This document shows, one piece after another, positions 44,432 through 63,500 of a stretch of DNA of 64,000 nt. The stretch is from assembly GCA_035499075.1 (NCBI GenBank), contig DATJZN010000024.1, positions 19,549-83,548 of the forward strand, given 5' to 3'. The position numbers and the translations under genes were made by a program. Numbering within the stretch: position 1 is the first letter of the stretch; every line of letters begins with the position of its first letter. Below the pieces are notes generated by a model. It did not search any database. It was not told the DNA's origin and saw nothing but the letters and a program-made list of their open reading frames with translations. The DNA comes from Myxococcota bacterium. Lineage in GTDB: Bacteria; Myxococcota_A; UBA9160; SZUA-336.

Positions 44432-45352
44432 ATGGCGAAGAAGCGGAAGCGCGGCGCGCTGTACTTCACGAGCATCGCGCGCGCGGGCGACGACTCCGTC
44501 GCGCTCTCGGGCAACTACTACATCTACGAGGACGGCGACGAGAAGCGCACCGCGCTGATCTCCCTGAAGCAAGGCCACTGGGGCGCGCTCGACGTGTCGG
44601 GCATCGTCCACGCCGCGCGCATCATCGGTACGTTCCCGAGCGGGAAGTGGACCATGCTCGGGCTCACGCAGAGCGGCGGCGTGTATCGGGCGTCGCCGTC
44701 GGGCGTGAAGTTCGCGATGATCGACGAGGAGCGGCCCGGCTCGCTCATGGACCTGCGCCAGATCGGGGGCAAGTGGTACGCGGTCGGCGGGCATCTGCGC
44801 ATCCATCGCGAGGACCGCGCCGGACACTGGACGGCGATCGACGACGACGTCTACCTCGAGGACGAAAAGGGCAACACGAAGCTCCTCTTGAGCATCGACG
44901 GCACCTCGGGCTCGGACCTGTGGACGGTGGGCTACAACGGCACCGTCCTGCATTACGACGGCTCGAGCTGGTCGTCGGTCGAGTCGCCGACCGACTACGG
45001 CCTGCAGCGCGTGCTCTGCCCGAAGAAGGGCGTCGTGTACGTGTGCGGTTACGGGAACTCGCTGTTCCGCCGCAACGCGAAGGGCGGCTGGGATGCGCTC
45101 ACGGAGCCCGACGAAGACATCGTGTTCTGGGACATGGCGTGGTTCCAGGACGAGCTCTACGTGTGCACGAAGAAGGACCTCTTCGTGCTGCGCGACGGCG
45201 AGCTCGAGAAGGTGAAGCCCAAGGTCGACGGGCCGCTCGGCTTCTACCGCATGGACGCCGACGACGGCGAGCTCTGGACGTGCGGCAACGAGTGCGTGCT
45301 CCGCTTCGACGGCAAGAAGTGGAAGCAGTTCGTCTGGCCCGACAACGAGTGA
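44432..45352 (+). CDS. Candidate immunity protein (beta-propeller-like repeat protein)
   Basis: 306 aa with no signal peptide. Repeated blade-like motifs are GHWGALDVSG, GKWTMLGLTQSGGVY, GGKWYAVGGHLRIH, GSDLWTVGYNGTVLHYDGSSW and GELWTCGNECVLRFDGKKW. It lies directly 3' of the toxin. Confidence 0.5.
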   Translation: MAKKRKRGALYFTSIARAGDDSVALSGNYYIYEDGDEKRTALISLKQGHWGALDVSGIVHAARIIGTFPSGKWTMLGLTQSGGVYRASPSGVKFAMIDEERPGSLMDLRQIGGKWYAVGGHLRIHREDRAGHWTAIDDDVYLEDEKGNTKLLLSIDGTSGSDLWTVGYNGTVLHYDGSSWSSVESPTDYGLQRVLCPKKGVVYVCGYGNSLFRRNAKGGWDALTEPDEDIVFWDMAWFQDELYVCTKKDLFVLRDGELEKVKPKVDGPLGFYRMDADDGELWTCGNECVLRFDGKKWKQFVWPDNE

Positions 45353-46592: not shown

Positions 46593-47289
46593 CGAGGTCG
46601 ACGAGCTCGATGAACGCGGGCACGCCCGAGAAGCGCGTCGCTTGCGCGATGAGCTCGTCGCTGGGTCGGAAGGCCGGTACCGCCGAGCGCAAGGTGACGA
46701 GCGGCAGCTCGCCGAGCGACTCGCGCTTCTCGATCACCACGTCGTAGCGCAGCTCTCGGAACAGCTCGCCGATCTCGGGCAGCCCGACGAGGAGCTGTTC
46801 GAGCACCAGCGCCGACAGCACGAACTGCCGCGCGTCGCTCGGGCGCAGCGAGGCGCGGTTCGCGAGCGCAGCTTCGAGCTGCGCGAGCGTGTAGCCCGAG
46901 CGGAACGCGATCGCCCAGCGCGCGGGATCGGTGATCGCGATCGTGCGGCCGTCGCTTTCGAGTGTATGGGCGTACTCGAACGGGAACACGTCGAGGATCG
47001 GCTCGACCGAGAGCGGCTCGTCGTCGAGCTCCTTGGGCAGGTTGAACGGGCGCCCGCAGGCAGCGAGCCAGCGCTCCTTCAGCCGGGCCAGCGCGCGGTC
47101 GGCGCCGGGCACCTCGTCGCGGCCGCCGCCCCGCACGTGCCGGCCCAGCAGCCGGCGGGGGGAAAGCACCGGCCGCAGCGCCTCCAGCTGGGCGGCCAGG
47201 CGCTCGCGCAGGAGCTTCGCCACCGTTTCGGTCTTCGCGCGCATGCGGGCCAGCTCGTCGATCGTGAGCGGGCGTCCGGGGTCGCTCAT
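46534..47289 (-). CDS. Hypothetical protein
   Basis: A 250-278 aa ORF in the track (46534..47370). The start is either at MSDPGRPLTIDELARMRAK (47289) or at 47370. No recognisable domain. Confidence 0.4.
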   Translation of the reverse strand: MSDPGRPLTIDELARMRAKTETVAKLLRERLAAQLEALRPVLSPRRLLGRHVRGGGRDEVPGADRALARLKERWLAACGRPFNLPKELDDEPLSVEPILDVFPFEYAHTLESDGRTIAITDPARWAIAFRSGYTLAQLEAALANRASLRPSDARQFVLSALVLEQLLVGLPEIGELFRELRYDVVIEKRESLGELPLVTLRSAVPAFRPSDELIAQATRFSGVPAFIELVDLDALPRLADPLRQRIEAAVR

Positions 47290-47391
47290 GGGGAGTTCAC
47301 TCCGCGGCCACGCTATCGCTGCGGGCTTGCGCGGGTCAAGGCTTCTTTCGATTGACCCCGGCGGAGGCATTCATCCATACTTCGCGCGGAG

Positions 47392-47859
47392 TTGGCTCGC
47401 TTTGGGGTCGCCCGTTTCGCGTCGTTGTTGGCGCCCGCGACGCGGTTGCTCGCGAGCGGGGTCGCCGTCGCGCTCGCGTGCGCCAGCGGTCCGGCGCCGT
47501 CGTCGATGTGCCTCGGCGTGACGGCGAGCCCGAAGCTGAACCTCTACGAAGGCGAGCCGCACGTGGTGGTGCTGAAGTTCTACCCGCTGCAGAACGTGGC
47601 GGCCTTCCAAGCGGCCGACGCGCAGGACTTGGTGAAGGGAAAGAAGCCCGCGGGTCTGACCGGCGATCCGTGGGAGGCGAGCGTCCTGCCTGGCCAGGCG
47701 CTCGACTTCTCCGAGCAGCTGCCGCGCGACACCTCGAACGTGGGCATCGTGGCGGACTTCTTCAACGGCGCGAGCCGCGCCGTCGTCCCCGCGAAGTGCG
47801 GCATGTTCGGCAAGCCGAAGATCGTGTTGTCGGCGAGCGACCTCCAGGTCGCGAACTAG
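47392..47859 (+). CDS. tssJ: T6SS outer-membrane lipoprotein TssJ
   Basis: TTG start. Lipobox VAVALAC. The SciN/TssJ-family pattern LNLYEGEPHVVVLKFYPLQNVAAFQAADAQDL...VLPGQ...VGIVADFFN is present. Confidence 0.7.
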   Translation: MARFGVARFASLLAPATRLLASGVAVALACASGPAPSSMCLGVTASPKLNLYEGEPHVVVLKFYPLQNVAAFQAADAQDLVKGKKPAGLTGDPWEASVLPGQALDFSEQLPRDTSNVGIVADFFNGASRAVVPAKCGMFGKPKIVLSASDLQVAN

Positions 47860-47861
47860 CC

Positions 47862-49199
47862 ATGGCCACGAAGGCGTGGGGAGCGCATCCGGTCGCGTGG
47901 CTCGAGGGCATGTTCCTGCGCCCGCAGCACCTGCAGCAGCGCGACCTCTTCGACGACGCACGGCTGGCGGCGGCGGTGCGCTCGCTCGACCCGTTCCACT
48001 GGGGCGTGCGCGCGCTCGAGGTGAACGAGGCCGCGCTCTCCGACCACCGCTTCGAGGTGCTGCGCCTCGACGCCGTGCTGCCCGGCGGGCTCGCGCTGCG
48101 CTACCCGGGCAACTGCACGCTCGAGACGCGCGAGTTCGATCCCGCGGCCGCGTCGACCGACGTGTTTCTCGCGGTGCGCCGGCTCGCGACCGGCGAAGCG
48201 CAAAGCGCGTCCGCCGACGCCGGCGCGCGCGACGTGCGCTACCGGGTGCGCGCCGAAGAGGTGCCCGACCTGTCGCGCGGCGCGAACGAGGCCGAGGTCG
48301 ACTTCCTGGTGCCGAACGCGCGGCTCTTCCTCGGCGGCGAGAAGCTCGAGATCGAGCAGCACGACGCGTTCCGGCTGGCGCGCATCGCGGCGACCGGCGA
48401 GCTGAAACGGCCGTTCGCGCTCGCGAAGGACTTCGCGCCACCGCTCCTCGCGGTGCAGGCGTCGCCGCTCCTCGACGACGAGCTCGCCCGGCTGCTCGGC
48501 CAGCTCGCTGCGCGCATGCGCGTGGTCGCGGGCCGCACCGCGACGATCGCGATCGCCGACCTGCCGCGCATGTGGATGCGCTACACGCTCGCGCGCATGA
48601 CGCCGCTCCTGCGGCACCTGTTGTCGACGGGCGCGACGCGGCCGTTCGAGCTGTACTCCGCGCTCGTCGAGACGGCAGGCGCACTCGCCGCGTTCTCGCT
48701 GCAGGAGCCGGTGGAGCTGCCGCGCTACGACCACGACGACCTGTACCGCTGCTTCCACGAGGTGATCGCCTTCATCGAGCGCGAGCTCGAGAAGGCGCTG
48801 CCCGACCGCTTCACCGAGCTCGAGATGCGCCACGACCGCACGGCGTACACCACGAAGGAGCTCACGCGCGAGCTCGTCGAGGCGCGCAACCACTTCTTCA
48901 TCGCGATCAAGGCGGCGGTCGACGCGCAGGAGCTCGTGGCGCTCGTGCGCGAATTCGGCAAGTGCGCGGCGCGCGACGAGCTGCCGTCGATCGAGATGCT
49001 GAAGCTCGCGGGGCTGCGCCTCGAGCCGCTGCCCGCCGCACCGACGGAGATCGCCGCGCGCGTCGGCTTCTCGTACTGGAAGCTCGAGCCGCACGGCAAG
49101 CTCTGGAACCGCGTGCGCGACGACTGCACCCTGGCGCTGTCGCTCGGCAAGCTCGAGGGCGCGGACGTCCGACTCTACGTGGTGTCGGCGGAGGCCTAG
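47862..49199 (+). CDS. tssK: T6SS baseplate protein TssK
   Basis: Starts MATKAWGAHPVAWLEGMFLRPQHLQQ, the canonical TssK N-terminus. 445 aa. The ORF in the track (47352..49199) is over-extended. Confidence 0.85.
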   Translation: MATKAWGAHPVAWLEGMFLRPQHLQQRDLFDDARLAAAVRSLDPFHWGVRALEVNEAALSDHRFEVLRLDAVLPGGLALRYPGNCTLETREFDPAAASTDVFLAVRRLATGEAQSASADAGARDVRYRVRAEEVPDLSRGANEAEVDFLVPNARLFLGGEKLEIEQHDAFRLARIAATGELKRPFALAKDFAPPLLAVQASPLLDDELARLLGQLAARMRVVAGRTATIAIADLPRMWMRYTLARMTPLLRHLLSTGATRPFELYSALVETAGALAAFSLQEPVELPRYDHDDLYRCFHEVIAFIERELEKALPDRFTELEMRHDRTAYTTKELTRELVEARNHFFIAIKAAVDAQELVALVREFGKCAARDELPSIEMLKLAGLRLEPLPAAPTEIAARVGFSYWKLEPHGKLWNRVRDDCTLALSLGKLEGADVRLYVVSAEA

Positions 49200-49202
49200 C
49201 CC

Positions 49203-49868
49203 GTGGGGCAGGGCAGACTGACTCGCCTGGCCGGCGCCTACGTGGCGCACGTGCAGTCGCTGCGCGCGGGCGACGGGCGCGCGTTCCCCGACGCGCCGGC
49301 GCTGCGCGCGCAATTGCTCGCGCTGCTCGCGCCGTTCCACGCCGCCGCGACCGCACAGGGCATCCCCGGAGAAGAAGTCGAAGAGGCGCGCTTCGCGCTC
49401 GTCGCGTGGACCGACGAAGTGCTCTCGAAGGCGAGCTGGGCGGGCCGCGACGAATGGCTGCGCGAGCCGCTGCAGACGCAGCTCTACCGCACCAACCGCG
49501 CGGGCAACGAGTTCTACGCGCACCTCGCGAAGCTGCGGCCCGATCAGGCCGCGGCGCGCGAGGTGTACTTCCTGGCGCTCGCGCTCGGCTTCGAGGGCCA
49601 GTACCAGGGCCAGGAGGCCGAGCGGCGCGCGCTGATCGCCCGCGAGTACGAGGCGCTGCGCGCGGCGGGCCGGCTCGCCGAGACGTCGCGCGAGTCGCAG
49701 CTCTCGCCCGGTGCGTACGCGCTCGACATCGAGCTGCCGCGCCGCGCGTCGAGCGGGCTGCTGCTCGGGCTGGGCGCGCTCGCGCTCGGCATGGCGGCGG
49801 TGTACGGGCTGCTCTGGGTCGTGCTGCACGCGACCAGCGGCAACGTGCCCGTGCCGAGGCTCGGCTAG
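49203..49868 (+). CDS. tssL: T6SS membrane-complex protein TssL (DotU)
   Basis: DotU-like sequence ...EARFALVAWTDEVLSK...EFYAHL..., with a single C-terminal transmembrane segment LLLGLGALALGMAAVYGLLWVVL. Confidence 0.8.
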   Translation: MGQGRLTRLAGAYVAHVQSLRAGDGRAFPDAPALRAQLLALLAPFHAAATAQGIPGEEVEEARFALVAWTDEVLSKASWAGRDEWLREPLQTQLYRTNRAGNEFYAHLAKLRPDQAAAREVYFLALALGFEGQYQGQEAERRALIAREYEALRAAGRLAETSRESQLSPGAYALDIELPRRASSGLLLGLGALALGMAAVYGLLWVVLHATSGNVPVPRLG

Positions 49869-49870: not shown

Positions 49871-52800
49871 GTGCGCGAGTGGCTCGCGGACGCGCGCGTC
49901 CGGATGGCAGCGCTGGCCGCGGGCGGCGTCGCGCTCGTGTCGCTGTTGCTCGGCGCGCTCACGCGCAACTGGCTCGTCGCGCTGCTCATCGCGCTGACGG
50001 CCCTGCTCGCGGTGCTCGTGGGTCTGCTGGTGCGCGTGTTGATCCAGCGCGAGCGCGAGGACCAGCTGCACCTCGGCGTCGGCGACGCGCGCGGCCGCGG
50101 CGGGCGTGCGCTCGGCGGCGCCGCGCCGGCCGGCGGCGCCGTGCTGTCGCCCGAAGAGCGCTTCGCGGGCGAGCTCGGCGAGGCGCGGGCGCAGCTCGCG
50201 CGGCGCGGCGGCATGTACGAGGTGCCGTGGCTGCTCCTGTTGGGCGAGAGCGGCGGCGGGAAGAGCGCGGTCGTCGCCAGCTCGGGGCTCGACCTGGTCG
50301 CGCAGTCGGCGCGGCGCGGCTTCGAGCCGACGCGCTTCGCGGAGCTGGTGCTCGCGAACGACGCGATCGCGCTCGACACTGCGGGCCGCTTCTTCCGCGG
50401 CGCCGAGCGCGACCACGAGGACTGGCTGCGCTTCCTCGGCCACGTGCGCAGCGCGCGGCCCGACTGTCCGGTCGACGCGGTCGTCGCCGTCGTGCCGGCC
50501 GCGTCGCTCTTGCGGCCGAAGAGCGGCGACCTGGACGACGACGCGCGCGAGCTGCGCCGGCGCCTGAACGAGATCCGCGTGAATCTCGCCGTCGATCCGC
50601 CCGTGTACCTGGTCGTGGCGAAGGCGGACCAGCTCGAGGGCTTCGCCGAGACGCTGCGCGCGCTGCCCGCGAGCTGGCGCGAGCAGGCGTTCGGCTGGAC
50701 GAACGACCAGCGCCGGCTCGCCGATCCCGAGGCGCGCGTGGTCGAAGCGCTCGGCGCGCTGTCGGCGCGGCTCGACGCGTTCCTGCCCGAGCTGCTGCTG
50801 CGGGAGCCCGACCCGGCGCGCCAGCGACGCATCTTCGTGTTTCCCGACCAGCTCACAGCGCTCGCGCGCACGGCGGCGCGCTTCGCCGGCGTGGCCTTCA
50901 AGCGCGATGCCTACAGCGAGGCGGCGCCGTTCCTGCGCGGCGTGTACCTGGCGAGCGCCCGCGCGCAGGAGGCCGGCGGCGAGAGCGCGTTCCTCCGCGA
51001 GCTGTTCGTCGACGTGATCCGCGGCGACGACGGGCTCGCGCTCCCCGAGAGCCGCATCGGCCCGCTCGGGCGCCGCGCCATCTTCGGCGCCGGGCTCATC
51101 GCGTCGGCGTGGCTGCTCGCCGTGTGGGGCGGCTCGTTCGCGCGGAACTACGAAGGCACGCACGAGCTCGCGAAGCGCGCCGAAGTCGCGCTGTCCGCGG
51201 ACCCGTCGCTGCGCGACCTGGGCGACCTGTGGACCGCGCTCGCCGACAGCGCCCAGGAGGCGCGCAGCGCCATCCACTGGATCGGCTTCGACGAGCTGTC
51301 GCGCGCGGTCGAGCGCGGCAAGGCGACGTACACGTTTGCGTTCGAGCGCAGCTTCGACCGCCTCACCAAACGCAACCTCGAGAGCGCGCTCGCGGGGCAG
51401 GACGAGCGCGGCGTGCGCGCGGCGATCTCGCTCGCGACCGACCTGGATTGGCTCGTCTCGGGCGCGGCCGACCTCGACCAGGTGCCGGAGCTCGCGGACT
51501 ACGTGCCGCAGACCGCCGCGCACGACGTCGCCTCGTACTCGGCCGCGTACGCGGCGTACGTGCGCTGGCTGCCCGAGCGCGAGCGCGACGACGCGCTGAA
51601 GCGCGAGCAGACCATGCTCGCGGGCGCGGCCGGCCGGCTGCTGCGCCTGCCGGTGCTCGAGGACATCACGAGCCAGCCGACCGGCGCGTTCCCGGCGGTG
51701 CGCTACGAGGACTTCGGCCTGCGCTCGCCCGGCGATCCGGCGGCGAGCGCGGTGCCCGGGATCTACACAAAAAAAGGTAACGACAAGCTCGTGGGCCGCT
51801 TGCTCGGCGCGATCGAGCGCACGGATTCGGTGCCGCCGGCGCAGGTCGCGGCGTTCAAGTCGCAGTACACCGACCGCTATCTCGCGAGCTGGCACCGTTT
51901 CTTCACCGGGGCGCCGATCACGCCGCGCGCCGCCGCGGACGCGAAGGGCTCGCCGTACCTGAAGCTCCTGCCGGAGATCGACAAGAACGCGGCCGTCGAG
52001 CTGCCCGGCAAGACGGACGCGCCGGCATGGCTCAGCGGCCTGCACGACGTGCTGGCGACGAGCGCCGGCGTGGGCGCGTTCCTGCCCGGCGGCGACCCGA
52101 CGCTGAAGGAGCTCGGCCCGCCGTGGACGGCCTACCAGAAGGCGCTCGACGCCGTGGCGCTCGACGTCGAGAGCGCGAGCGCGAAGGGCGAGCGCGCGCT
52201 CGGGCTCGCGCGCGACGTGGGCGAGGCCAAGCCGACCTCGTTCTCGGCGGCGCTCGACCTGGTCGGCAAGATCACGCGCTCGAGCGGCGACCCCGCCGGC
52301 AGCGAGAAGCTGCGCGACCTGCTCGACGCGCCCGTGCTCGACGCGTTCTCGGCGCTGCTGCTGTCCGCCCGCGACGAGCTCGACCGGCGCTGGACGGAGC
52401 GCATCGCGAGCAAGTTCGCGGGCGAGCTCACGCCGCAGGCGCTCGGCGAGCTCTATGCCACCGACGGCGCGCTGCCGAAGTTCCTCGCCGAAGAGCTCGC
52501 GCCGTTCTACAAGGACGGCGCGCCGCGGCAGATCCTGGGCGACCGCGCGCTGCCGTTCGGCAGGGGCGCGCTCGACTGGCTCGCGCACGCGCACGACATG
52601 AGCGCGCATCTCGGCGGCGCGGGCGGCGCGTCGGGCGTGCAGGTCGTGCGCCTGCGTGGCGTGCCGTCGACCATCGAGGGTGGCGACGGCCAGCGCGTGC
52701 TCCGCCGCGACTTGAAGCTCGCGTGCCCCGACGGCGAGCAGACGTTCCTGTACCGCGAGGGCAGCGGAGAGCAGGCGTTCAACTGGCGCGCGAGCTGCGA

Positions 52801-53050
52801 CGAGGTCGATCTGCGCGTGGTGCTGGCGTCCGCCGCGAACCCGAGCGGCGTGGAGGTGGCGCGCACGTGGCGCGGACCGCTCGCGCTGCCGCGTTTCCTG
52901 CAGGACGGCCACCGCGGCTCGGACGAGGTCTACGACTGGACGCTCGAGTCGCCCGACGGCGTGCGCGTGCGAGTCCGCTACCAGCTCGAAGCGGGCAGCG
53001 ACGTGCTCCGCCTCGCGCACGACGCGCCGCCCGCGTCGCTCGGGAGCTGA
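49871..53050 (+). CDS. tssM: T6SS membrane-complex protein TssM (IcmF)
   Basis: GTG start, with an alternative ATG at 49904. N-terminal transmembrane helices. Walker A LLLGESGGGKSAVV. About 1060 aa with an IcmF-related C-terminus. The ORF in the track (47876..53050) is an over-extension. Confidence 0.9.
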   Translation: MREWLADARVRMAALAAGGVALVSLLLGALTRNWLVALLIALTALLAVLVGLLVRVLIQREREDQLHLGVGDARGRGGRALGGAAPAGGAVLSPEERFAGELGEARAQLARRGGMYEVPWLLLLGESGGGKSAVVASSGLDLVAQSARRGFEPTRFAELVLANDAIALDTAGRFFRGAERDHEDWLRFLGHVRSARPDCPVDAVVAVVPAASLLRPKSGDLDDDARELRRRLNEIRVNLAVDPPVYLVVAKADQLEGFAETLRALPASWREQAFGWTNDQRRLADPEARVVEALGALSARLDAFLPELLLREPDPARQRRIFVFPDQLTALARTAARFAGVAFKRDAYSEAAPFLRGVYLASARAQEAGGESAFLRELFVDVIRGDDGLALPESRIGPLGRRAIFGAGLIASAWLLAVWGGSFARNYEGTHELAKRAEVALSADPSLRDLGDLWTALADSAQEARSAIHWIGFDELSRAVERGKATYTFAFERSFDRLTKRNLESALAGQDERGVRAAISLATDLDWLVSGAADLDQVPELADYVPQTAAHDVASYSAAYAAYVRWLPERERDDALKREQTMLAGAAGRLLRLPVLEDITSQPTGAFPAVRYEDFGLRSPGDPAASAVPGIYTKKGNDKLVGRLLGAIERTDSVPPAQVAAFKSQYTDRYLASWHRFFTGAPITPRAAADAKGSPYLKLLPEIDKNAAVELPGKTDAPAWLSGLHDVLATSAGVGAFLPGGDPTLKELGPPWTAYQKALDAVALDVESASAKGERALGLARDVGEAKPTSFSAALDLVGKITRSSGDPAGSEKLRDLLDAPVLDAFSALLLSARDELDRRWTERIASKFAGELTPQALGELYATDGALPKFLAEELAPFYKDGAPRQILGDRALPFGRGALDWLAHAHDMSAHLGGAGGASGVQVVRLRGVPSTIEGGDGQRVLRRDLKLACPDGEQTFLYREGSGEQAFNWRASCDEVDLRVVLASAANPSGVEVARTWRGPLALPRFLQDGHRGSDEVYDWTLESPDGVRVRVRYQLEAGSDVLRLAHDAPPASLGS

Positions 53051-53051: not shown

Positions 53052-53792
53052 GTGAGGCCGCTGCGCGCGCTCGGCTGCCTGCTCGCCGCGGCTCTGGCGG
53101 GCGCGTGCGCGAAGCCGCCGCCCGACCTCGACGCCGAGCCCGCCGGCGCGATCGCGCTCCCGCTCGGCCAGGTGCACGCCGACACCCTCGACTGCGACAA
53201 GGGCGACTGCGCCGACTGGTACAAGATCGCCGTGCCGGGCGAGGGCAAGCTGTTCGTCGACGCCGACCCCGCGGTCGCCAACGCGGGTTTCGCGGTGCAG
53301 CTCGTCGACGCGGGCGGAGCGCCGCTCGCAGCGGGCGACAGCGCGGGCGGGAAGGCGGCCGTGCGCCTGCACACTCCGGTGTCGGAAGGAGCGGTGCTCG
53401 TGAAGGTCGTGCCCACGGATGCGAAGGCGAACGTCGCGTACGCCGTCACGGCGCGCTTCAAGCCTGCACCGCCGCCTCCGGTCGTGAAGGCGCCCGAGCC
53501 GCGCTTCGAGACGAAGAGCGCCGCGGTGCTCGAGGTCGAAGGCGACCGCACGGCGCATCCGGCGGTGCTGATCGACGCGGGCCAGGCGGCGAAGCTCGCT
53601 CCCGGCATGCGCGGCCGCCTGGTCGACAAGGGCCATACGATCGGCCAGATCGTGGTGCAGGACGTCTATCCCGACGGGAGCCGCGCGCGCGTCGACGGCC
53701 CGCTGTCGGGGCAGATCGGCCCGCACACGACCGCAGAGATCGACGTGCCGATCGCCGCTCCGGCGGGCCCGGAGAGCCCGCCCGAGAAGTAG
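53052..53792 (+). CDS. Lipoprotein of unknown function (T6SS-adjacent)
   Basis: Signal peptide with lipobox LAGAC. Cys-containing motif DCDKGDCADWYKIAV. 246 aa. Confidence 0.5.
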   Translation: MRPLRALGCLLAAALAGACAKPPPDLDAEPAGAIALPLGQVHADTLDCDKGDCADWYKIAVPGEGKLFVDADPAVANAGFAVQLVDAGGAPLAAGDSAGGKAAVRLHTPVSEGAVLVKVVPTDAKANVAYAVTARFKPAPPPPVVKAPEPRFETKSAAVLEVEGDRTAHPAVLIDAGQAAKLAPGMRGRLVDKGHTIGQIVVQDVYPDGSRARVDGPLSGQIGPHTTAEIDVPIAAPAGPESPPEK

Positions 53793-53796: not shown

Positions 53797-55161
53797 GTGG
53801 CCGCGCGCCTGGTCGAGCTCCGCGGCGGCCGCATCGCGTCGGAGCGCCGGCTCGGCCGCCGCGAGGTCGTGCTCGGCCGCGCTCCGTCGTGCGACGTCGT
53901 GCTCGACGACCCGCGCGTGTCGCGCGAGCACGCGCGCATCGACGCGAGCGAGGGCGAACACCTGCTCGTGGACCTGGGCAGCCGCAACGGCACGCGCGTG
54001 AACGGCCAGCCGGTCACGCGCGCGGTCGCGCTGCGCGACGGCGACCTCGTGCAACTCGGCGACGCGGTGTTCCGCTACGAGCTCGAAGCGGGGGCGCGGC
54101 CGCGCACCGCGCTGTGGCTCGGCGTAGCGGCGGCCGGAGTGATCGCGCTGGCGGCAGGCTTGTTCTTCGCGCTGCGCAGCGACCCGGTGCTGCGTCAGGC
54201 CGCGGAGACGGCGCGCGCCGCCGTCGAGGCCTCGCAGAAGGGCGACGCCGCGCGCGGGCGCGACTTGCTGCAGGACGCGGTCGCGCAGCTCTACCGCGCG
54301 GGGCGGCTCGACGACGTGCCGCGCCTGCACGCGCGCGAAGAGGGCCTGCAGCGGCTCGGCCAGGCGCTGGGCGGCGGCGTCGACCTCGTCGCCCTCTACC
54401 GCGCGGACGTCGAGCGCGGGCGCGCGCGCCAGGTGTCGGCTGCGCCGCCGCCGGGCCGCGGTCCGTGCCGGCTCGACGAGATCGCCGCCGCCGACCTCGA
54501 CGTGTGCGTGCGCGAGCGCGCCGAGGCGATCCTCGTGGGGCTGTGGCAGGACCCCGCGAAGGTGCCCGACTCGTTCTACCGGCAGGTCGAGGACCAGCTC
54601 TTGTTCCTGCTGCGGACGAATCGGCCGTGGGTCGCGTCGTCGCTCGCGCGCGGCGAGAAGCTCGAGCCCCTGCTCGTGCGCGAGCTCACCGCCGCGAAGG
54701 TACCGCCGCAGCTCCGCTACCTGGCCATGATCGAGAGCGGCTACAACCCGAACGCCGCCAGCGGGGCCGGCGCGCGCGGTCTGTGGCAGTTCATCCCGTC
54801 GACGGCGCAGCGCTACGGGCTCGTGGTGTCGGGCTCGGTCGACGAGCGCCTCGACCCCGCGAAGTCTACGCGCGCGGCGGCGCGCTACCTGTGCGACCTG
54901 GCGTTCGAGTTCGGCGACGAGGCGCTGCTGCTCGCCGTCGCGTCGTACAACAAGGGCGAGGGCGGCATCCGCTCCGCGCTCCACAAGCTCGACGACCCGC
55001 GCACGGAGCGCTCGTACTGGGTGCTCGCGCAGCGCGGGCTCCTGCCGGCCGAGACGCGCGACTACGTGCCGCGGCTCATCGCTGCCGCGGTGCTGGGCGA
55101 GGCGGGCGTGCCTTCGGAGGCCGCGCTCGCGGAGCGGCAGACCGCCTCGGCGCATGAGTGA
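53797..55161 (+). CDS. FHA domain, TM, lytic transglycosylase (SLT domain) fusion protein
   Basis: N-terminal FHA: VVLGRAPSCDVVLDDPRVSREHARI...NGTRVNGQPV. Transmembrane segment LWLGVAAAGVIALAAGLFFAL. C-terminal SLT motifs LAMIESGYNPNAASGAGARGLWQFIPSTA and ...SYNKGEG. Confidence 0.7.
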   Translation: MAARLVELRGGRIASERRLGRREVVLGRAPSCDVVLDDPRVSREHARIDASEGEHLLVDLGSRNGTRVNGQPVTRAVALRDGDLVQLGDAVFRYELEAGARPRTALWLGVAAAGVIALAAGLFFALRSDPVLRQAAETARAAVEASQKGDAARGRDLLQDAVAQLYRAGRLDDVPRLHAREEGLQRLGQALGGGVDLVALYRADVERGRARQVSAAPPPGRGPCRLDEIAAADLDVCVRERAEAILVGLWQDPAKVPDSFYRQVEDQLLFLLRTNRPWVASSLARGEKLEPLLVRELTAAKVPPQLRYLAMIESGYNPNAASGAGARGLWQFIPSTAQRYGLVVSGSVDERLDPAKSTRAAARYLCDLAFEFGDEALLLAVASYNKGEGGIRSALHKLDDPRTERSYWVLAQRGLLPAETRDYVPRLIAAAVLGEAGVPSEAALAERQTASAHE

Positions 55162-57022: not shown

Positions 57023-57141
57023 CCTGCAGGTGAGGCCCTGCAGTGCCGGCCGGGCTCTGCACTCCAGCCCGCGCGGAGCCCGCCAAGCCCGCCCCGCTGC
57101 ACGAGAATTGCGGCATGCCGCTTGCTCGAGGGGGGAGCCGG

Positions 57142-58383
57142 ATGAAGCGCCGAACTACAATTCCAGGTGCCGCCATCGGGGTCTCGACCGGACTCCTGCT
57201 CGGCGCGCTGAGCTCGTGCGGGGTGGAGCGCATGCCTCACGACTGGGACGAGTGGAAGAAGTGGAAGGGACGGCACCGCTACGGCCGGCCCGATTGGAGC
57301 CGTTCCGGCCGCGGCGACTGGAGCCGCCCGGGCCGCATGCGCTCGGAGCGCGACGACGAGCGCGAGCTCGAGCGCGCGTCGCGGCGCGAGCGCCGCCGCC
57401 GCCCGCCGCTCACGCCCGAAGAAGAGGCCTACCGCGAGGCGCGCCGCGCCGCCGAGCGCAAGCTCGCGTTCTTTCGCCACCTCGTCCCGTACGTGTCCGT
57501 GGTGCTGTTCCTCACGGTCGTCGTCGGCCGCTTCGTCGGCGCCGTGGTCGCGCTGTCTTGGGGCATCGGGCTCGCGTCGCACTACTTCCAGGCGTTCGTC
57601 GCGCCGGGCCTGCGCCAGAAGTGGGTGCGCGCCGAGGTCGAGCGCCAGGTCGCGCGCACCGTGTCGCGCCAGCGCGTGGTGCTGGAAGACGAGAAGCTGC
57701 GCTCGCTCGAGGAGCTGTCGGCCTCGATCGCCCACGAGATCCGCAACCCGATCACCGCCGCGAAGAGCCTCGTGCAGCAGCTCGGCGAGGACCCGAGCTC
57801 CACCGAGAACGTCGAGTACGCGAACATCGCGCTGCAGGAGCTCGACCGCGTGGAGAAGTCCATCTCGCACCTCCTGCGCTACGCGCGCGAAGAGGAGATG
57901 CACCCGACGCAGATGAAGCTCGTGGACGCGATCGAGAGCGCGCTCGAGACGCTGCGCGAGCGCGTGCAGGCGGCGAACGTGAAGATCCGCCGCGACTTCG
58001 ACGTGCCGGGCGAGCTCATCGGCGACCGCGAGCAGCTGCGCCGCGTGTTCATCAACGTGATCGGCAACGCGCTCGACGCGTTCGCGGACGCGAAGACGCC
58101 GAGCCCGACGCTCGCGATCGGTGTGGGCGAGAACCTGGGCGGCAGCGAGATCTGGGCGCGCGTGAAGGACAACGGCCCCGGCATGGACGCCGATACCCAG
58201 ACGCGCATCTTCAAGCCCTTCTTCACCTCGAAGGCGAACGGCACGGGCCTCGGGCTCGCGATCACCCGCAAGCTCGTCGACGCGCACGGCGGCGCCATCG
58301 AGGTCAGCTCGACTCCCGGTCAGGGCACCGAGTTCACGCTGCACTTCCCGAAGCAGGCGCAGCAGCCGGAGGCGCGGTCGTGA
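57142..58383 (+). CDS. Sensor histidine kinase
   Basis: Start placed at MKRRTT, after a gggggag ribosome-binding site. Two transmembrane segments. H-box SASIAHEIRNPITAAKS. HATPase N/G boxes NVIGNALDA, DNGPGMD and GTGLGLAI. Confidence 0.8.
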   Translation: MKRRTTIPGAAIGVSTGLLLGALSSCGVERMPHDWDEWKKWKGRHRYGRPDWSRSGRGDWSRPGRMRSERDDERELERASRRERRRRPPLTPEEEAYREARRAAERKLAFFRHLVPYVSVVLFLTVVVGRFVGAVVALSWGIGLASHYFQAFVAPGLRQKWVRAEVERQVARTVSRQRVVLEDEKLRSLEELSASIAHEIRNPITAAKSLVQQLGEDPSSTENVEYANIALQELDRVEKSISHLLRYAREEEMHPTQMKLVDAIESALETLRERVQAANVKIRRDFDVPGELIGDREQLRRVFINVIGNALDAFADAKTPSPTLAIGVGENLGGSEIWARVKDNGPGMDADTQTRIFKPFFTSKANGTGLGLAITRKLVDAHGGAIEVSSTPGQGTEFTLHFPKQAQQPEARS

Positions 58384-59777
58384 GCGCACGCATCCTCATC
58401 GTGGAAGACGAGAAGGCGATCCAGCTGGCGCTGCGCGGGCTGTTGCGCCGCGATGGCTACGACGTCGACCTGGCCGACACGGGCGAGGACGCCGTGCGGA
58501 AGCTCGGCGAGGCCGTCTACGACCTGGTGATCACCGACCTCGCGCTCGGCCGCGGCCTGTCGGGCATGGACGTGCTGCGCGCGACGAAGGACGCCCGCGC
58601 CGAGACGGCGGTCGTCATGATCACCGCGCACGGCAGCGAGAAGGTCGCGGTCGAGGCGATGAAGCAGGGCGCCGAAGACTACCTGCCCAAGCCGTTCGAC
58701 AACGAAGAGCTGCGCGTCGTAGTGCGCCACGCGCTCGAGAAGACGCAGCTGCAGCGCGAGAACCGCATGCTGCTCGAGCGGGTGGAGCGCGAGTTCAGCT
58801 TCGAGAACCTGATCGGCCAGGGCCGGGCGATGCGGCAGATCTTCGAGACGATCCAGAAGGTCGCCGAGACCGACCTGTCGGTGCTGGTGCGCGGCGAGAG
58901 CGGCACGGGCAAGGAGCTCGTGGCGCAGGCGCTGCACCAGCGCAGCGCCCGGCGCGCGAAGCCGTTCATCGCGGTGAACTGCGCCGCGATCAGCCGCGAG
59001 CTGGTCGAGAGCGAGCTGTTCGGCCACGAGAAGGGCGCCTTCACGGGCGCCGACGCGCGGCGCATCGGCAAGTTCGAAGCCGCGAACGGCGGCACGATCT
59101 TCCTCGACGAGATCGGCGACATGGCGCCCGAGACGCAGGCCAAGGTGCTGCGCGTGCTGCAGGAGCGGAGCTTCGAGCCGGTCGGCGGGAACCGCGCGGT
59201 GACGGTCGACGTGCGCGTCGTGGCCGCGACGCACCGCGACCTCGAAGCCGAGGTCAAAGCGGGCCGCTTCCGCGAGGATCTCTACTACCGCTTGAAGGTC
59301 GTGGAGATGACCTTGCCGCCGCTGCGCGAGCGGCTCGAGGACGTGCCGCTCCTCGCCCAGCGCTTCCTCGACCAGGTCGCGGAACGACTCGGCCGCGCGC
59401 GCAAGCCGATCTCTGCCGAGGCGCTCGCCCGGCTCGTCACGTGCTCGTGGCGCGGCAACGTGCGCGAGCTGCGGAACGCGATCGAGCGCGCAGCCGTGCT
59501 GGCGTCGGGCGACGAGATCCAGGCCGGCGACCTCGCGCTCGACGGCGAGCCCGCGGTGACGAGCGCCGACCCGCTCGTGCTGCCCGGCGTGCCGTTCCGC
59601 GATGCGAAGCGCCACACGGTGGAGAGCTTCGAGCGCGCCTACCTGATCAAGGCGCTGCGCGAGCACGGCGGCAACGTGTCGCGCACGGCCGAGGCCATCG
59701 GCATGGTGCGCCAGAGCCTGCAGCAGAAGATTCGCGAGCTGGAGCTCCGCTCCGAGGATTGGAGCGAGGACTCCTAG
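58380..59777 (+). CDS. Sigma-54-dependent NtrC-family response regulator
   Basis: The GTG overlaps the kinase stop. Receiver domain LIVEDE...DLVITDL. AAA+ module GESGTGKE with the sigma-54 contact motif GAFTGA. C-terminal helix-turn-helix. Confidence 0.9.
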   Translation: MSARILIVEDEKAIQLALRGLLRRDGYDVDLADTGEDAVRKLGEAVYDLVITDLALGRGLSGMDVLRATKDARAETAVVMITAHGSEKVAVEAMKQGAEDYLPKPFDNEELRVVVRHALEKTQLQRENRMLLERVEREFSFENLIGQGRAMRQIFETIQKVAETDLSVLVRGESGTGKELVAQALHQRSARRAKPFIAVNCAAISRELVESELFGHEKGAFTGADARRIGKFEAANGGTIFLDEIGDMAPETQAKVLRVLQERSFEPVGGNRAVTVDVRVVAATHRDLEAEVKAGRFREDLYYRLKVVEMTLPPLRERLEDVPLLAQRFLDQVAERLGRARKPISAEALARLVTCSWRGNVRELRNAIERAAVLASGDEIQAGDLALDGEPAVTSADPLVLPGVPFRDAKRHTVESFERAYLIKALREHGGNVSRTAEAIGMVRQSLQQKIRELELRSEDWSEDS

Positions 59778-59785
59778 GAGACGAC

Positions 59786-60547
59786 ATGACCCATCCGTAC
59801 GCACAGCGGGGCTTCTTCGCGCGACTGCGCGACCTGTGGAGCGGCATGTTCTCGGCGTGGATCCGCGACCGCGAGGCGTCGAGCCCCGACGCCGTGTACG
59901 AGCGCGTGATCGGCGAGCGCGTGCGCCAGTACGCGGAGCTGAAGCGCGCCGTCGCCGGGATCCTCTACATGCGCAACAAGATCGCGGGCGAGATCCGCGA
60001 CCGCCGCGCCGAGCTCGCGCGCCTGCACGCCGACATCGCGCGCGCCGTCGACAAGAACGACGACGAAGTCGCGGTCGTGCTGATCACGCAGAAGGACGGC
60101 CTGCTCCAGGACCTGGAGCGCTCCGAGAAGGAGCTCGACGAGGTCTCGGCGGAGTGCGAGTCCGCGAAGACGAACCTGGTGAAGTTCCGCGCCGAGATCC
60201 GCAATCTCGAACGCGAGAAGCTGCGCATGCTGGCCGCGCTGGCGAACGCGCGCGCGCGGAAGCGCATCCAGGAAGCCTTCGAAGGTCTCTCGACCGAAGG
60301 CGAGATGCGCGCGCTCGAGAGCGTGCGCGGCGAGATCGAGCGCATGAAGGCCGAGAGCCGGATCGACGTCGACATGGACTCGGGCCTCGAGAAACGCGTG
60401 CGCGCCATCCGCGACGAAGCGAAGCTCGACGCCGCGCGCCGCGAGCTGGAGGAGCTGAAGCGGCGCCTGCGCCCCGCGGGCCAGCTTGCGCCGGCACCGC
60501 GCGAGGTGGTGATCGAGGCGCCTCCGGTCGCTGCAGCCGGGCGCTAG
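59786..60547 (+). CDS. pspA: PspA/IM30-family protein (phage shock protein A)
   Basis: 253 aa with coiled-coil heptads. The N-terminus ...LWSGMFSAWIRDREASSPDAVYERVIGERVRQYAELKRAVAGILYMRNKIAGEI matches the PspA/Vipp1 family. Confidence 0.8.
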   Translation: MTHPYAQRGFFARLRDLWSGMFSAWIRDREASSPDAVYERVIGERVRQYAELKRAVAGILYMRNKIAGEIRDRRAELARLHADIARAVDKNDDEVAVVLITQKDGLLQDLERSEKELDEVSAECESAKTNLVKFRAEIRNLEREKLRMLAALANARARKRIQEAFEGLSTEGEMRALESVRGEIERMKAESRIDVDMDSGLEKRVRAIRDEAKLDAARRELEELKRRLRPAGQLAPAPREVVIEAPPVAAAGR

Positions 60548-60590: not shown

Positions 60591-63500
60591 ATGCCGTGTC
60601 CCCGGCGCCAGAGACCGAAGGTCGCCTTCTGGCTGGTCACGTTCGTCGGACTCGCACTCGCGAATCAGGGTTTCGCAGTCAGCATCACGGTGTACGCGCA
60701 AGGGGACGGCACCGACGCCGTAGCGAACGTCGATACGACCGATCCCACCAACGACGCGACCGCCTTCGGAGCGCGCGCTGGCCTAGGAGAGACCGCGGTG
60801 CACGGCGGCGCAGGCATCGCGACCGCCCGAACCAGGGGCACGACTGGACCGGCCACCGCAACGGCCATTGCGGGCGGGGGTCAGGGCGGAGGCCCCGCAG
60901 GAGGCGCCACTGCGTCTGCCGACGCGCGAGCGACGGGCAGCAATCCTGCAACCGCGACGGCGCTGGCAATCGGCGGTGTCGGCGGAGTCCTCCCCGGCGG
61001 TGGGAATGGCTCCGGGGCCGGGGGTACCAGCCTCCAAGCCACGGCGTATGCGCAATCGGGCTCGGGGAACGCCGACGCGACGGCGCAGGTCACCGGTGGC
61101 GCGGGCAATTTCATGCTCCCGAATTCGTCCGGCTCGGGCGGGTCCGCCGACATCGCGAACGCGGTCTCCGGCATGACGGCGGGCACGCTCACTCTCCAGC
61201 AAACGGCCGTGGGCGGAGCCGCGGGCGGGACTGCAGGGGACACCGGCGGCGGAGACGGGGGCCATGCCACCAACACGCTCGACTTCTCCACGACCGCGTC
61301 GGCGCTGAACGCGACGCTCCATGCCCACGGGGGACTCGGCGGCACCGTGACGTCGGGAACTGCTGCTGGCCGCGGTGGAGACGCCAGTGGCACCGCGGAC
61401 GTCACCAACTCGAGCGGCTCACTCACTCTGGACGTCAAGGCATCGGGTGGGGGCGGCGGGGGATCCGGCCTCGGCTCGGGTGCGCAGGGCGGGGCTGCCG
61501 GAAATGCGTCCGTCCAGGCGCGAGGCACCGTCGGGGGCGATGGTCACGTCTTGGTGGTCGGCAACTTCGATCCCCGCGTGGGTCTCGAAATACCGAGCGA
61601 GCAGGACTTCGGTGCGTTTGGCGGAAACTCGGGCGGGACCCTCGGAAACGACTCGCCCGGCGCAGGCAACGCGCAGAGCCGCTCGATGGGCGTCGCGCTG
61701 GGCGACAGCCAGGTCACGGTCAACGACCTCGCGGTGGGCGGGAGCGGCGGTGAGCCGGACCTGCTGTTCGGCGGAAGCGATGGAGGCGGCGGAAACGGCG
61801 GCACCGCGTCCTCGCGCGCGGAAGGGAGCAACGCGGGTTCGAGCTCGGCGGTCACCGTCAGCTCGACGGCGATCGGAGGCGCTGGCGGTGGCGCGACCGG
61901 AGTGGGCCGATCCTCCGGTTCGGGTGGCCAAGCGACGGCGAGCGCCGCCGGAAGCTCGACTCAGTGCGACGTGAGCGTGACTGCCACCCAGATCGGCGGT
62001 TCGGGCGGTGCGGCCTTGAACGGAGCCGCAGCCGGCAGTGGAGCCGGCTCCGTCCTCGTCGACGCCGTGAGCGGCAGCACCAACGGTGCGCTCACGCTGG
62101 CTCAATCGGCGATCGGCGGCAACGCCGGAGCTTCTACGGATCCGGCGAACGTGGGAGGCGCAGGCAACGCCAGCTCCGACCTCACGTTCGACGACGGCGG
62201 GACCGGGAGCCTGTCCATCCGCTCCAGTGCCACCGGTGGCTCTGCGGGAGGCTCGGGCGGAACGGCCGGGACGGCCTCAGCTTCGGCGCATGGCACCGGC
62301 TCTGGACCCGCCGTCTCCGTCACGGCGACTGCCCAGGGAGGCGCGGGCTTCTTCACGTCGTCGGGGCAGGTGGGAACCGGCGCGGATGGCGCAACGGCGA
62401 CGGTGGGCGCCGTCACCGCGTTGGCAACCGGATCTGGAAGCGCGAGTGCTGCTGCGACCGTGACCGGCGGTGCGGGCGCGACGTCCGTTCAAGGTGCGGG
62501 TGGAAACGGTGCCGTTGCCGCGCTCGTCGACGTCGTCTCAGCACAGGTCAATCCGCTGACTTCGGGCTCGCTCAGTCTCACTCAGTCCGCGTTCGGCGGA
62601 GCAGGAGGCGGGGGCGCTCTAGGTGGCGTGGGCGGTGCAGGTGGCAATGCTTCGAACTCACTGACTCGCACGGTGCAAGCCGCCGGCGGAGTCCGGGAGT
62701 TTCTCCAGGCCAAGGGTGGGGACGGCGGGGGCCAGACCCAGGCGAGCTTCGTCGGGTCGGCTCCCACGGGTGGACGCGGAGGAGACTCGCTCGTCACGAG
62801 CGAGCTCACCTCGCTCAGCGGTTCGATCCGCTTCGACGTCGAGGTCGGGGGCGGCAACGGCGGGTCGGGTCCCCAGGGAGGTGACGGAGGTCGAGCCGAG
62901 GTGGACGCACACGACGATGCGATGCGCGCGGGTGATTCCGTCACTCTCGGTTCGGAGTCGTTCGGCCCGGTGGTCGGCGGCAACGGCGGCTCGGGTTCGG
63001 CAGGAGCGGGTCGAGGTGGAGACGCCAGCGTTGCGCTGTACGGAGCCAACCTCGCGCCGGCCGGAGGCGGGAGCTTCTATGCGCCGGTCACGGTGACGAG
63101 CTCGGCGACCGGGGGGTTCGGCGGATACTCGCGGACGCCCGGCGAGGTGGGGGGAGCGGGCGGTAACGCGAGCGCAACAGCCGTGGGCTCGAGCTTCGGG
63201 ACGTCGACCGTGACCGTCGAGGCGACGGCGAAAGCCGGGCAAGGTGGAGGAGGGTCGGAGCCGTCGGATCCGTACTCGCTCGGCACGTACCCCGATGTCA
63301 CCGGCCATGCCGGGTCGGCCCTCGCACAGGCGAATGGCAGCGGCCTCGGCGCGGTGAGCGTCTACGCGAGCGCGGACGGCGGCAAGAGCTTGGGAGCCGC
63401 GCTGGCGCGGGCCAGCGGGCTGGGCTCGAGCGGATCGGTGGGCTCGGAGGCTTCGAGCGGACTTCCTTATTCGAGTTCTGCGTATCTCGACGCGACCGCT

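Follow-up and report, generated by a model that had tools for sequence, protein, structure and literature searches.

A predicted FHA-transmembrane-lytic transglycosylase protein encoded in a type VI secretion system operon of a Myxococcota bacterium

Results

Gene and operon

Here, we analysed a stretch of 64,000 nucleotides from a Myxococcota bacterium (assembly GCA_035499075.1, contig DATJZN010000024.1), referred to as the window in the following, and examined an open reading frame (ORF) at positions 53797-55161 of its forward strand. The ORF encodes a 454-residue protein that combines an FHA domain, one transmembrane helix and an SLT-type lytic transglycosylase domain (designated the FHA-SLT protein). 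Genes were called by a codon-position frame vote and then scanned with Pfam, and a complete type VI secretion system (T6SS) cluster was found to span 24140-55161, nearly all of it on the forward strand (Table 1). The FHA-SLT gene closes the tssJ-K-L-M operon of this cluster, with one conserved lipoprotein gene between it and tssM.

The G+C content of the window is about 72%, so long spurious ORFs are plentiful. According to the window ORF listing, the FHA-SLT gene begins with a GTG codon 4 nt past the stop of the preceding gene. Its G+C fractions at the first, second and third codon positions (0.77, 0.57 and 0.93) show the signature of a real coding sequence, and about 100 homologous protein clusters have the same architecture at 39-79% identity. 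Thus, it is a genuine coding gene. The string of tssJ-K-L-M, lipoprotein and FHA-SLT genes is tightly packed (junctions of 1-4 nt), and the end of the FHA-SLT gene overlaps the next gene, encoding a CocE/NonD hydrolase, by 8 nt. A promoter-like site lies directly 5' of tssJ at 47352-47381, and no terminator-like site was found between this site and position 57022.

Domain architecture and membrane topology

Pfam searches detected the FHA domain (PF00498) at residues 24-88 (E-value 7.9e-22, 77.9 bits against a cutoff of 20.7, with the full profile 1-67 covered) and the SLT domain (PF01464) at residues 302-397 (E-value 1.2e-24, 86.5 bits against a cutoff of 21.3). An AlphaFold2 (AF2) model based on the family alignment reached a pLDDT of 90.3 overall and 90-96 over residues 1-96. 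It consists of a beta-sandwich (residues 3-96), a helix (103-127), a helical region (130-299) for which Pfam gave no match, and a lysozyme-like domain starting from residue 304.

The FHA domain is predicted to be of the phosphothreonine-binding type by its profile, its pocket residues and its 11-stranded beta-sandwich fold. Foldseek aligned the N-terminal domain with the phosphothreonine-binding FHA domains of GarA, OdhI and Rv0020c (TM-score 0.78-0.92, root-mean-square deviation 1.7-2.1 Å), and its nearest relatives are the mycobacterial FhaB/GarA types (phmmer E-value of 1.4e-12 against GarA). The pocket signature is complete, comprising Gly-Arg in the b3-b4 loop, Ser-x-x-His in b4-b5 and Asn-Gly-Ser/Thr in b6-b7, and it matches the GarA residues in the alignment. 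Within our family alignment (alignment A1; 24 members with 41-78% identity to the query), residues G27, R28, S42, H45, S62, N64, G65 and T66 were unchanged in every member, down to 41% identity.

By profile, motifs and its lysozyme-like all-helical fold, the SLT domain is assigned to family 1 lytic transglycosylases, in the MltD-like subgroup. The C-terminal part of about 200 residues matched the catalytic module of Pseudomonas aeruginosa MltD (8rhe/8rhf/8rhi) with a Foldseek probability of 1.0 and 35% identity over about 200 columns. The phmmer comparison with 8rhe (E-value 4.9e-25) aligned the 'IES.YNP' motif, and the counterpart motifs read 'VIESAYNP...GLWQF...AYNAGEG'. The catalytic motif in the window is AMIESGYNPNAASGAGARGLWQF, in which the codon of E313 occupies 54733-54735. 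Residues E313, S314, G328, W330, Q331, Y384 and G387 did not vary across the 24-member alignment, and E313, W330, Q331, Y384, N385 and G387 were also unchanged in 11 fused proteins from five phyla. Both the catalytic and the phosphothreonine-pocket residues are intact, and their invariance points to selection on functional residues.

The lone hydrophobic helix, at approximately residues 103-127, has a Kyte-Doolittle value of 2.37 (≤1.6 for all other segments); its position is common to all 24 aligned relatives, while its sequence varies. For the 24 sequences taken together, the net charge amounted to +1 in the 15 residues N-terminal to the helix versus -22 on the C-terminal side. Exactly two conserved cysteines (C224 and C237) were found in nearly all members, the pair being confined to the C-terminal part, and no N-terminal signal peptide or lipobox was found in the protein. 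Because of this charge bias, the C-terminal cysteine pair and the lack of a signal peptide, an N-in/C-out topology is supported, with the FHA domain predicted in the cytoplasm and the SLT domain in the periplasm. This is also the sole arrangement that fits what both domains do.

The first-pass annotation of this DNA, made from the letters alone, had read the ORF, at exactly these coordinates, as a cytoplasmic FHA domain joined by one transmembrane helix to a periplasmic SLT domain with an ES..NP....GA.GLWQ motif, and had staked this reading on the SLT catalytic residues being kept. The analyses above bear out each of these points. It had also described the gene as lying next to tssM, which is nearly right, although one gene intervenes.

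That gene encodes a 246-residue lipoprotein with an invariant lipobox cysteine (Cys19) and a 'GDCADWY' motif in the alignment of its homologues. No Pfam match was obtained for it. Its AF2 model (pLDDT 89) comprises two beta domains, i.e., an N-terminal sandwich resembling PPC/collagen-binding domains (Foldseek TM-score of about 0.8 to PPC domains) and a small conserved C-terminal beta domain. Only about 35 homologues exist, all named 'hypothetical', and within the Myxococcota clade the gene invariably lies between tssM and the FHA-SLT gene. It counts as a separate, uncharacterised T6SS-associated gene; the protein is a probable periplasmic partner of the FHA-SLT protein and, as judged from the model, a putative binding module with no enzymatic signature.

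Several known families were considered and rejected for the FHA-SLT protein. The model for MltD orthologues (NCBIfam NF008050) gave 91.7 bits against a cutoff of 508 and covered residues 275-430 only, and both the lipobox and LysM are missing. The TagH/Fha1 model (TIGR03354) scored 62.1 bits against 120.25 in the FHA part only, without any match to T6SS_FHA_C (PF20232), and the SctD/YscD model (TIGR02500) scored 19.8 bits against 86, a match to PF16697 reflecting the shared FHA fold only. TagX was set apart, without direct comparison with a TagX sequence, as only FHA and SLT domains and a transglycosylase fold were detected. Thus, the protein shares with MltD the catalytic module only, and with TagH, GarA and SctD only the generic FHA fold.

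Relatives and genomic context

The window belongs to a clade of Myxococcota metagenome-assembled genomes (MAGs) with 39-79% identity, in which tssJ-K-L-M is followed by a lipoprotein of about 245-275 residues and then by the FHA-SLT protein. The order tssM-lipoprotein-FHA/SLT was observed in the window and in all eight loci with enough upstream sequence (L001, L003, L005, L089, L090, L091, L163 and L170). A small FHA gene and then a VWA-FHA gene come directly 3' of the FHA-SLT gene in five of the eight, with PP2C next in four of them (L003, L005, L090 and L091) and the contig ending at this point in L089. In L005, L090 and L091, the string closes with a Hanks-type kinase of 926-1143 residues bearing extracytoplasmic-type C-terminal domains.

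Other fused proteins were found in further clades. A clade of 550-574 residues, including Candidatus Eisenbacteria and others, has two FHA domains before the SLT domain; its gene order is FHA, [FHA-FHA-SLT], (VWA)FHA, PP2C and Ser/Thr kinase (STK), and at two of its three loci tssJ-K-L-M follows 7-10 kb further downstream. Fused loci were also identified in Fibrobacterota (L009-L011), where L011 lies near tssC/hcp/tssF/tssG/clpV and a CHASE2-kinase directly precedes the fusion in L010, as well as in Ignavibacteriaceae (L047, fusion followed by PP2C) and in a Myxococcales MAG (L012). In a Chromatiaceae MAG (L081), a divergent kinase, the FHA-SLT protein, TagH (FHA plus T6SS_FHA_C), TssJ, TssK, an OmpA-bearing TssL and a full-length TssM are encoded together; this is a canonical proteobacterial T6SS with the classical phosphorylation pathway. 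A homology search seeded with L081 uncovered a second, larger clade, in which the best 120 matches were nearly all FHA+SLT proteins (E-value <1e-139). Among these 120 were proteins from the cultured Thiocystis violacea, Thiorhodococcus spp. and Thiohalocapsa marina, as well as from Candidatus Thiosymbion, Candidatus Competibacter, Nitrospirae, Bryobacteraceae and Planctomycetes. In the Nitrospirae locus L092, the fusion sits between a set of PAAR toxin and peptidoglycan-binding genes and tssBC. With more than 200 protein clusters, the FHA+SLT fusion is not rare.

Genomic context was compared over 18 fused loci with usable flanks, a small sample partly selected for long contigs; in divergent phyla, T6SS genes were detected by tblastn with Myxococcota queries, which may miss some. 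T6SS genes were present within 10 kb of the fusion in 14 of the 18 loci, belonging to Myxococcota, Eisenbacteria, Fibrobacterota, Chromatiaceae and Nitrospirae, and almost all 18 have adjoining STK, PP2C and/or additional FHA or VWA-FHA genes. Because adjacency to both T6SS and STK/PP2C/FHA genes recurs across phyla, the T6SS link proposed in the first-pass annotation is not a coincidence of this window. Operationally, the FHA-SLT gene is a Type VI-associated gene (Tag), that is, a non-core gene recurrent in T6SS loci of at least five phyla.

A scan of GTDB genomes with SLT-motif patterns retained 80 loci that were mostly generic MltD-like; this set was unsuited as a census and was reused as a negative control, and the fused members in Fibrobacterota, Ignavibacteriaceae and Chromatiaceae also came from it. 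No tssJ/K/L/M, tssB/C, hcp or vgrG was found near its 74 SLT-only relatives, whose lone match to a T6SS query was of the ClpV/ClpB type (L028). In addition, a metagenome scan for the linker motif GRLDDVPR returned 119 matches, of which 115 were chance occurrences in high-GC DNA and four were family loci.

In some of the relatives an apparent TssB-TssC fusion was also observed, as a single gene of 577-638 residues matching both T6SS_VipA and VipB. It is divergent from tssJ in L003 (1486-3231, -), L005 (1463-3196, -) and L091 (1195-2964, -), and lies just 3' of the FHA-SLT gene in L092 (11583-13499, +).

Phospho-signalling module

A phospho-signalling module comprising PP2C, a small GarA-like FHA protein and a VWA-FHA protein heads the T6SS cluster of the window (24140-27369, +). 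PP2C has a transmembrane segment at residues 271-289 and a C-terminal tail of about 125 residues that is read as extracytoplasmic. The VWA-FHA protein consists of a signal peptide, the VWA domain, a transmembrane segment (residues 325-343) followed by a basic stretch, and the FHA domain, an order from which a VWA-out/FHA-in topology follows. P. aeruginosa PpkA carries its periplasmic VWA domain on the kinase, whereas here the periplasmic VWA domain sits on an FHA protein. The entire module appears to be embedded in the membrane. The small FHA protein has a disordered, proline-rich tail with a single conserved threonine (T-x-[Y/I]; 'AGATRIL' in the window) about 25 residues before the FHA domain (alignment A3). 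Since this layout resembles that of the self-regulating GarA/OdhI, the tail threonine is a candidate phospho-acceptor, i.e., a kinase substrate.

No Pkinase match was found by Pfam among the 47 called genes of the window, and a tblastn search of its six frames, with four kinases encoded at the loci of relatives as queries, gave nothing better than an E-value of 0.12; no kinase hidden in unannotated window sequence was thus found. This agrees with what had been noted from the letters alone, namely a PP2C phosphatase, two further FHA proteins and no kinase in the window. Compared with its relatives, the PP2C/FHA/VWA-FHA block has been relocated to the head of the cluster in this organism, and its kinase would be encoded at another site of the genome.

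Table 1. Coordinates of the T6SS cluster and of the parts of the FHA-SLT gene in the window
Feature	Position	Strand	Basis or remark
PP2C	24140-25390	+	Pfam
Small FHA protein	25436-26038	+	Pfam
VWA-FHA protein	26041-27369	+	Pfam
TssA	28027 (start)		Pfam
TssB	29152-29670		Pfam; separate gene
TssC	29672-31165		Pfam; separate gene
Hcp	31210 (start)		Pfam
TagJ/ImpE	31705 (start)		Pfam
TssE	32504 (start)		Pfam
TssF	32995 (start)		Pfam
TssG	34800 (start)		Pfam
ClpV	35849 (start)		Pfam
VgrG	38514 (start)		Pfam
DUF6484	40804 (start)		Pfam
DUF2169	41334 (start)		Pfam
PAAR-like/GHH2 toxin	43243 (start)	+	Pfam
Two genes	45354-47370	-	
tssJ	47392-47859	+	Pfam
tssK	47796-49199	+	Pfam
tssL	49203-49868	+	Pfam; DotU only, without peptidoglycan-binding domain
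tssM	49871-53050	+	Pfam
246-residue lipoprotein gene	53052-53792	+	Synteny, lipobox, AF2; no Pfam match
FHA-SLT gene (FHA-TM-SLT)	53797-55161	+	ORF, Pfam FHA and SLT, AF2 pLDDT 90.3, family alignment
Predicted cytoplasmic FHA domain, residues 3-96	53803-54084	+	Pfam, Foldseek, phmmer, invariant pocket
Pocket G27-R28	53875-53880	+	Alignment
Pocket S42-R43/H45	53920-53931	+	Alignment
Pocket S62/N64-G65-T66	53980-53994	+	Alignment
Single transmembrane helix, residues 103-127	54103-54177	+	Kyte-Doolittle, AF2, charge bias
Predicted periplasmic all-helical linker, residues 130-299, with 'GRLDDVPR'	54184-54693	+	Alignment, AF2 helices
Linker C224	54466-54468	+	Invariant in family alignment
Linker C237	54505-54507	+	Invariant in family alignment
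Predicted periplasmic MltD-type SLT domain, residues 302-436	54700-55104	+	Pfam, phmmer, Foldseek
Catalytic E313-S314	54733-54738	+	
Catalytic G328/W330-Q331	54778-54789	+	
Catalytic Y384-N385-x-G387	54946-54957	+	

Other genes of the window

In the window, as at every locus of the Myxococcota clade, TssL is of the DotU-only type (about 220 residues), and Pfam detected no gene with an OmpA, MotB or LysM domain in the T6SS cluster of the window. TssM (1059 residues) matches IcmF-related_N only. The periplasmic Pfam domains IcmF-related, IcmF_helical and IcmF_C were not detected in TssM of the window or of its Myxococcota relatives, and are present in L081 TssM; thus, this T6SS lineage has a TssM whose periplasmic part has diverged strongly. 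The divergent region corresponds to the part that binds MltE and TssJ in Escherichia coli.

An effector island (38514-45352) contains vgrG, DUF6484, DUF2169, a 386-residue ORF and a toxin with PAAR-like and GHH2 (HNH/EndoVII) nuclease domains. The toxin gene is followed by a gene of 306 residues with no Pfam match, which is likely an immunity gene (both within 43243-45352, +).

Directly 3' of the cluster (57043-60547, +), we found genes for a histidine kinase with a 2TM domain, an NtrC-type sigma-54 activator (REC, AAA and Fis HTH) and PspA/IM30. These may form a regulatory unit for envelope stress or for the T6SS, the latter because sigma-54 activators control several T6SSs.

The first 24 kb of the window encodes arginine/ornithine metabolism and transporters unrelated to T6SS. 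A dense arginine/polyamine block (6696-20681) includes arginine deiminase, ornithine carbamoyltransferase, carbamate kinase, three paralogous Orn/Lys/Arg decarboxylases (9856-12327, +; 12324-14627, -; 18249-20681, -) and two amino-acid permeases; one of these permeases carries a fused solute-binding domain of the periplasmic type. No Pfam match at E ≤ 0.001 was obtained for two large ORFs whose coding signal is good: one of 945 residues (2663-5500, +) and one of >1135 residues that runs off the window end (60591-63998, +).

Discussion

We propose that the FHA-SLT protein may act as a bitopic inner-membrane peptidoglycan opener of the T6SS, controlled by the threonine-phosphorylation pathway of its locus through docking of the FHA domain, and assign a probability of roughly 0.55 to this reading. 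It builds on what was observed: the arrangement of the domains, the signals for topology, the intact residues, the place in the operon and a synteny with T6SS and STK/PP2C/FHA genes that extends across phyla. The idea that phospho-signalling might be coupled to wall opening, which the first-pass annotation had raised, is supported in silico, and it is strengthened since the synteny with T6SS and phospho-signalling genes recurs in related loci and not in SLT-only relatives.

In the proposed mechanism, a partner Hanks-type kinase would make a phosphothreonine epitope on which the cytoplasmic FHA domain docks. Docking would concentrate or license the FHA-SLT protein at a nascent TssJLM site, where its periplasmic MltD-type domain, possibly together with the adjoining lipoprotein, would cut glycan strands locally and let the membrane complex of about a megadalton (MDa) thread through the sacculus. 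Removal of the phosphate by PP2C would then release the protein. From the data above we infer enzymatic activity, dependence on phosphothreonine and a need for the protein in T6SS assembly, as well as a ligand, candidates for which are the kinase itself, the conserved threonine in the tail of the small GarA-like FHA protein, or a membrane-complex subunit.

Because of its size, TssJLM cannot cross the sacculus without help, and in enteroaggregative E. coli (EAEC) TssM recruits and activates MltE (PMC13584744, PMC10433429). Assembly of the T6SS membrane complex requires local peptidoglycan cleavage, by MltE in EAEC and by TagX in Acinetobacter, and FHA/PpkA/PppA gate T6SS assembly post-translationally (PMC13584744, PMC10433429, PMC9251886). 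Specialised lytic transglycosylases 'are an exception in T6SS clusters' (PMC10433429). MltE of EAEC Sci-1 is, like the FHA-SLT protein, a family 1 lytic transglycosylase, and its local activity lets TssJLM assemble, the same job as proposed here. However, MltE is a housekeeping outer-membrane lipoprotein that is encoded off-locus and controlled by periplasmic contact with TssM, whereas the FHA-SLT protein is locus-encoded, predicted to be anchored in the inner membrane, of the MltD subtype and equipped with a cytoplasmic FHA domain, from which control by cytoplasmic phosphorylation would follow. TagX of Acinetobacter and Burkholderia is likewise a peptidoglycan hydrolase of the T6SS locus that is needed for T6SS function, but it is an L,D-endopeptidase acting on peptide cross-links, unrelated in sequence and without FHA, and TagX loci lack PpkA/PppA/Fha (PMC9251886).

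The signalling side also has known counterparts. In the TagH/Fha1-PpkA-PppA systems of P. aeruginosa H1, Agrobacterium and Serratia, T6SS assembly is gated by an FHA protein, a Hanks-type kinase and a PP2C phosphatase whose genes accompany those of the T6SS, and in L081 TagH adjoins the fusion. TagH is soluble, carries T6SS_FHA_C and has no enzyme domain; the Myxococcota module has the small GarA-like FHA protein and the VWA-TM-FHA protein in its place. In the actinobacterial PknB-FhaA/FhaB(FipA)-MviN/CwlM systems, FHA domains couple Ser/Thr phosphorylation to peptidoglycan enzymes, but reader and enzyme are separate proteins and govern synthesis. The FHA(in)-TM-periplasmic topology is shared with SctD/YscD and GltG, although SctD lacks the phosphothreonine pocket and is a ring-forming scaffold.

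On the enzyme side, MltD of E. coli and P. aeruginosa (8rhe, 8rhf, 8rhi) has a similar catalytic module with the shared 'ES', 'GLWQF' and 'AYN.GE' motifs, but it is a lipoprotein with C-terminal LysM, whereas the FHA-SLT protein has an FHA domain and a transmembrane helix instead of the lipid anchor. For EtgA/IpgF of type III secretion systems (T3SS), VirB1 of type IV secretion systems and FlgJ/SltF of flagella, an SLT-type enzyme encoded in the gene cluster of the machine opens the wall locally, as is proposed here. These enzymes are soluble in the periplasm and recruited by periplasmic rod or needle components, and we know of none with a cytoplasmic phospho-reader.

A full-text literature search found no description of an FHA+SLT fusion and zero co-occurrence of 'FHA domain' and 'SLT domain', a provisional result from an incomplete library. 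The accessory-gene catalogues of two T6SS reviews list no FHA-transglycosylase (PMC13584744, PMC10433429), and databases name the family only as 'transglycosylase SLT domain-containing protein' or 'FHA domain-containing protein'. The first-pass annotation had called the design undescribed for canonical T6SSs; this has to be corrected in that the fusion is neither a single case nor limited to non-canonical systems, as it forms a large family that also occurs in the canonical, TagH-containing locus L081. A dedicated secretion-system transglycosylase is already known as a kind; its fusion to a phospho-signalling layer is provisionally new.

Several observations weigh against the proposed function. 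With no kinase in the window, phospho-control here has to depend on a gene encoded elsewhere in the genome. TssL of the examined loci has no conserved N-terminal threonine tail of the type targeted in Agrobacterium, and some FHA domains, such as that of T3SS SctD, work without phosphothreonine. At four loci (L008, L010, L012 and L093), no T6SS gene was found within the roughly 10 kb available. In L093 (711-14979, Candidatus Competibacter), none occurs within 15 kb, and an STK-FHA/SLT-PP2C block lies beside genes for a TolC-like outer membrane efflux protein, an 819-residue FHA protein, an HlyD-type membrane fusion protein and an ABC protein with C39 peptidase and cNMP-binding domains. Because of this TolC/membrane fusion protein/ABC-C39 neighbourhood, the module may serve envelope machines more generally; it hints that a phospho-gated transglycosylase also serves a type I-like exporter in L093. 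Moreover, the sequence would fit inside-out recruitment and outside-in sensing alike.

If signals ran from outside to inside, the periplasmic SLT domain would sense or process damaged or remodelled peptidoglycan (for example, upon an incoming attack), cluster, and offer the FHA domain to the kinase or phosphatase so as to tune the pathway. STK, PP2C or other FHA genes adjoin the fusion even where no T6SS is in view (L010 and L093), VWA-TM-FHA and PP2C with its transmembrane segment and C-terminal tail are also bitopic with periplasmic domains, as in a transmembrane signalling complex, and the threonine-phosphorylation pathway of P. aeruginosa responds to envelope perturbation (PMC9251886). However, the linked kinases own extracytoplasmic sensor domains themselves (CHASE2, PKD/BiPBP_C-like and FGE-sulfatase), the unconserved sequence of the transmembrane helix argues against conformational signalling through it, and a strictly conserved full catalytic apparatus would be superfluous for mere binding, even though catalysis and sensing are compatible. 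We consider sensing unlikely. Catalytic conservation speaks also to a structural role, in which the SLT domain would tether the membrane complex to peptidoglycan in place of the OmpA-like domain of TssL (TagL/TagN-like) and the FHA domain would connect it with the apparatus in the cytoplasm: the invariant catalytic glutamate argues for turnover, and the FHA-SLT protein has lost the peptidoglycan-binding LysM repeats of MltD. Such an anchor would suit the DotU-only TssL and the lack of an OmpA/MotB/LysM gene described above, and loci with an 'ancestral' TssL carry a compensating peptidoglycan-binding Tag (PMC13584744). On the other hand, the fusion coexists with an OmpA-bearing TssL in L081 and with a separate PG_binding_1 protein in L092, and we regard an anchoring role as quite improbable.

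It is equally doubtful that the protein is a kinase-regulated housekeeping enzyme of the cell wall, comparable with actinobacterial PknB/FhaA/CwlM control, whose position in T6SS loci is incidental or loosely functional. The closeness of its SLT domain to housekeeping MltD and of its FHA domain to the mycobacterial types would agree with this, as would the four of 18 loci with no T6SS gene in view; yet the tssM-lipoprotein-FHA/SLT order is held from 39% to 100% identity, and the association is seen again in other phyla and with unrelated subtypes of the T6SS, and is missing from SLT-only relatives. Many T6SS effectors are muramidases or transglycosylases, and in L092 a PAAR toxin gene is present 9 kb upstream. 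Nevertheless, a delivered anti-bacterial effector would hardly be expected to have an internal transmembrane anchor and a cytoplasmic signalling domain, no association with PAAR, VgrG, MIX or Rhs and no immunity-like neighbour were found, and the gene is located in the membrane-complex operon and not in the vgrG island. Considering its topology and operon position, we rejected the effector reading as highly implausible.

With regard to the peptidoglycan opener that we favour, a broader generalisation can be put forward tentatively: such proteins might represent a widespread, unnamed class of T6SS accessory proteins that turns the local opening of peptidoglycan into a direct output of the PpkA/PppA-type pathway, the module being reused by other exporters as in L093. 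If true, this would supply the missing step between kinase activation and site-specific assembly of the membrane complex.

Two questions in the T6SS field are touched by these results. One is how a membrane complex of about a megadalton crosses peptidoglycan in species that have neither MltE-type recruitment nor TagX, and the other is what mechanistic role the threonine-phosphorylation pathway plays in triggering assembly at one particular site. Both are joined in one polypeptide by a transglycosylase that is encoded in the locus, carries a predicted phosphothreonine reader of its own and occurs in organisms ranging from Myxococcota to cultured purple sulfur bacteria. To our knowledge, it would be the first case in bacteria of a Ser/Thr-phospho-signalling domain fused in one chain to an enzyme that lyses the cell wall, and such a fusion also bears on how bacteria keep autolysins spatially safe.

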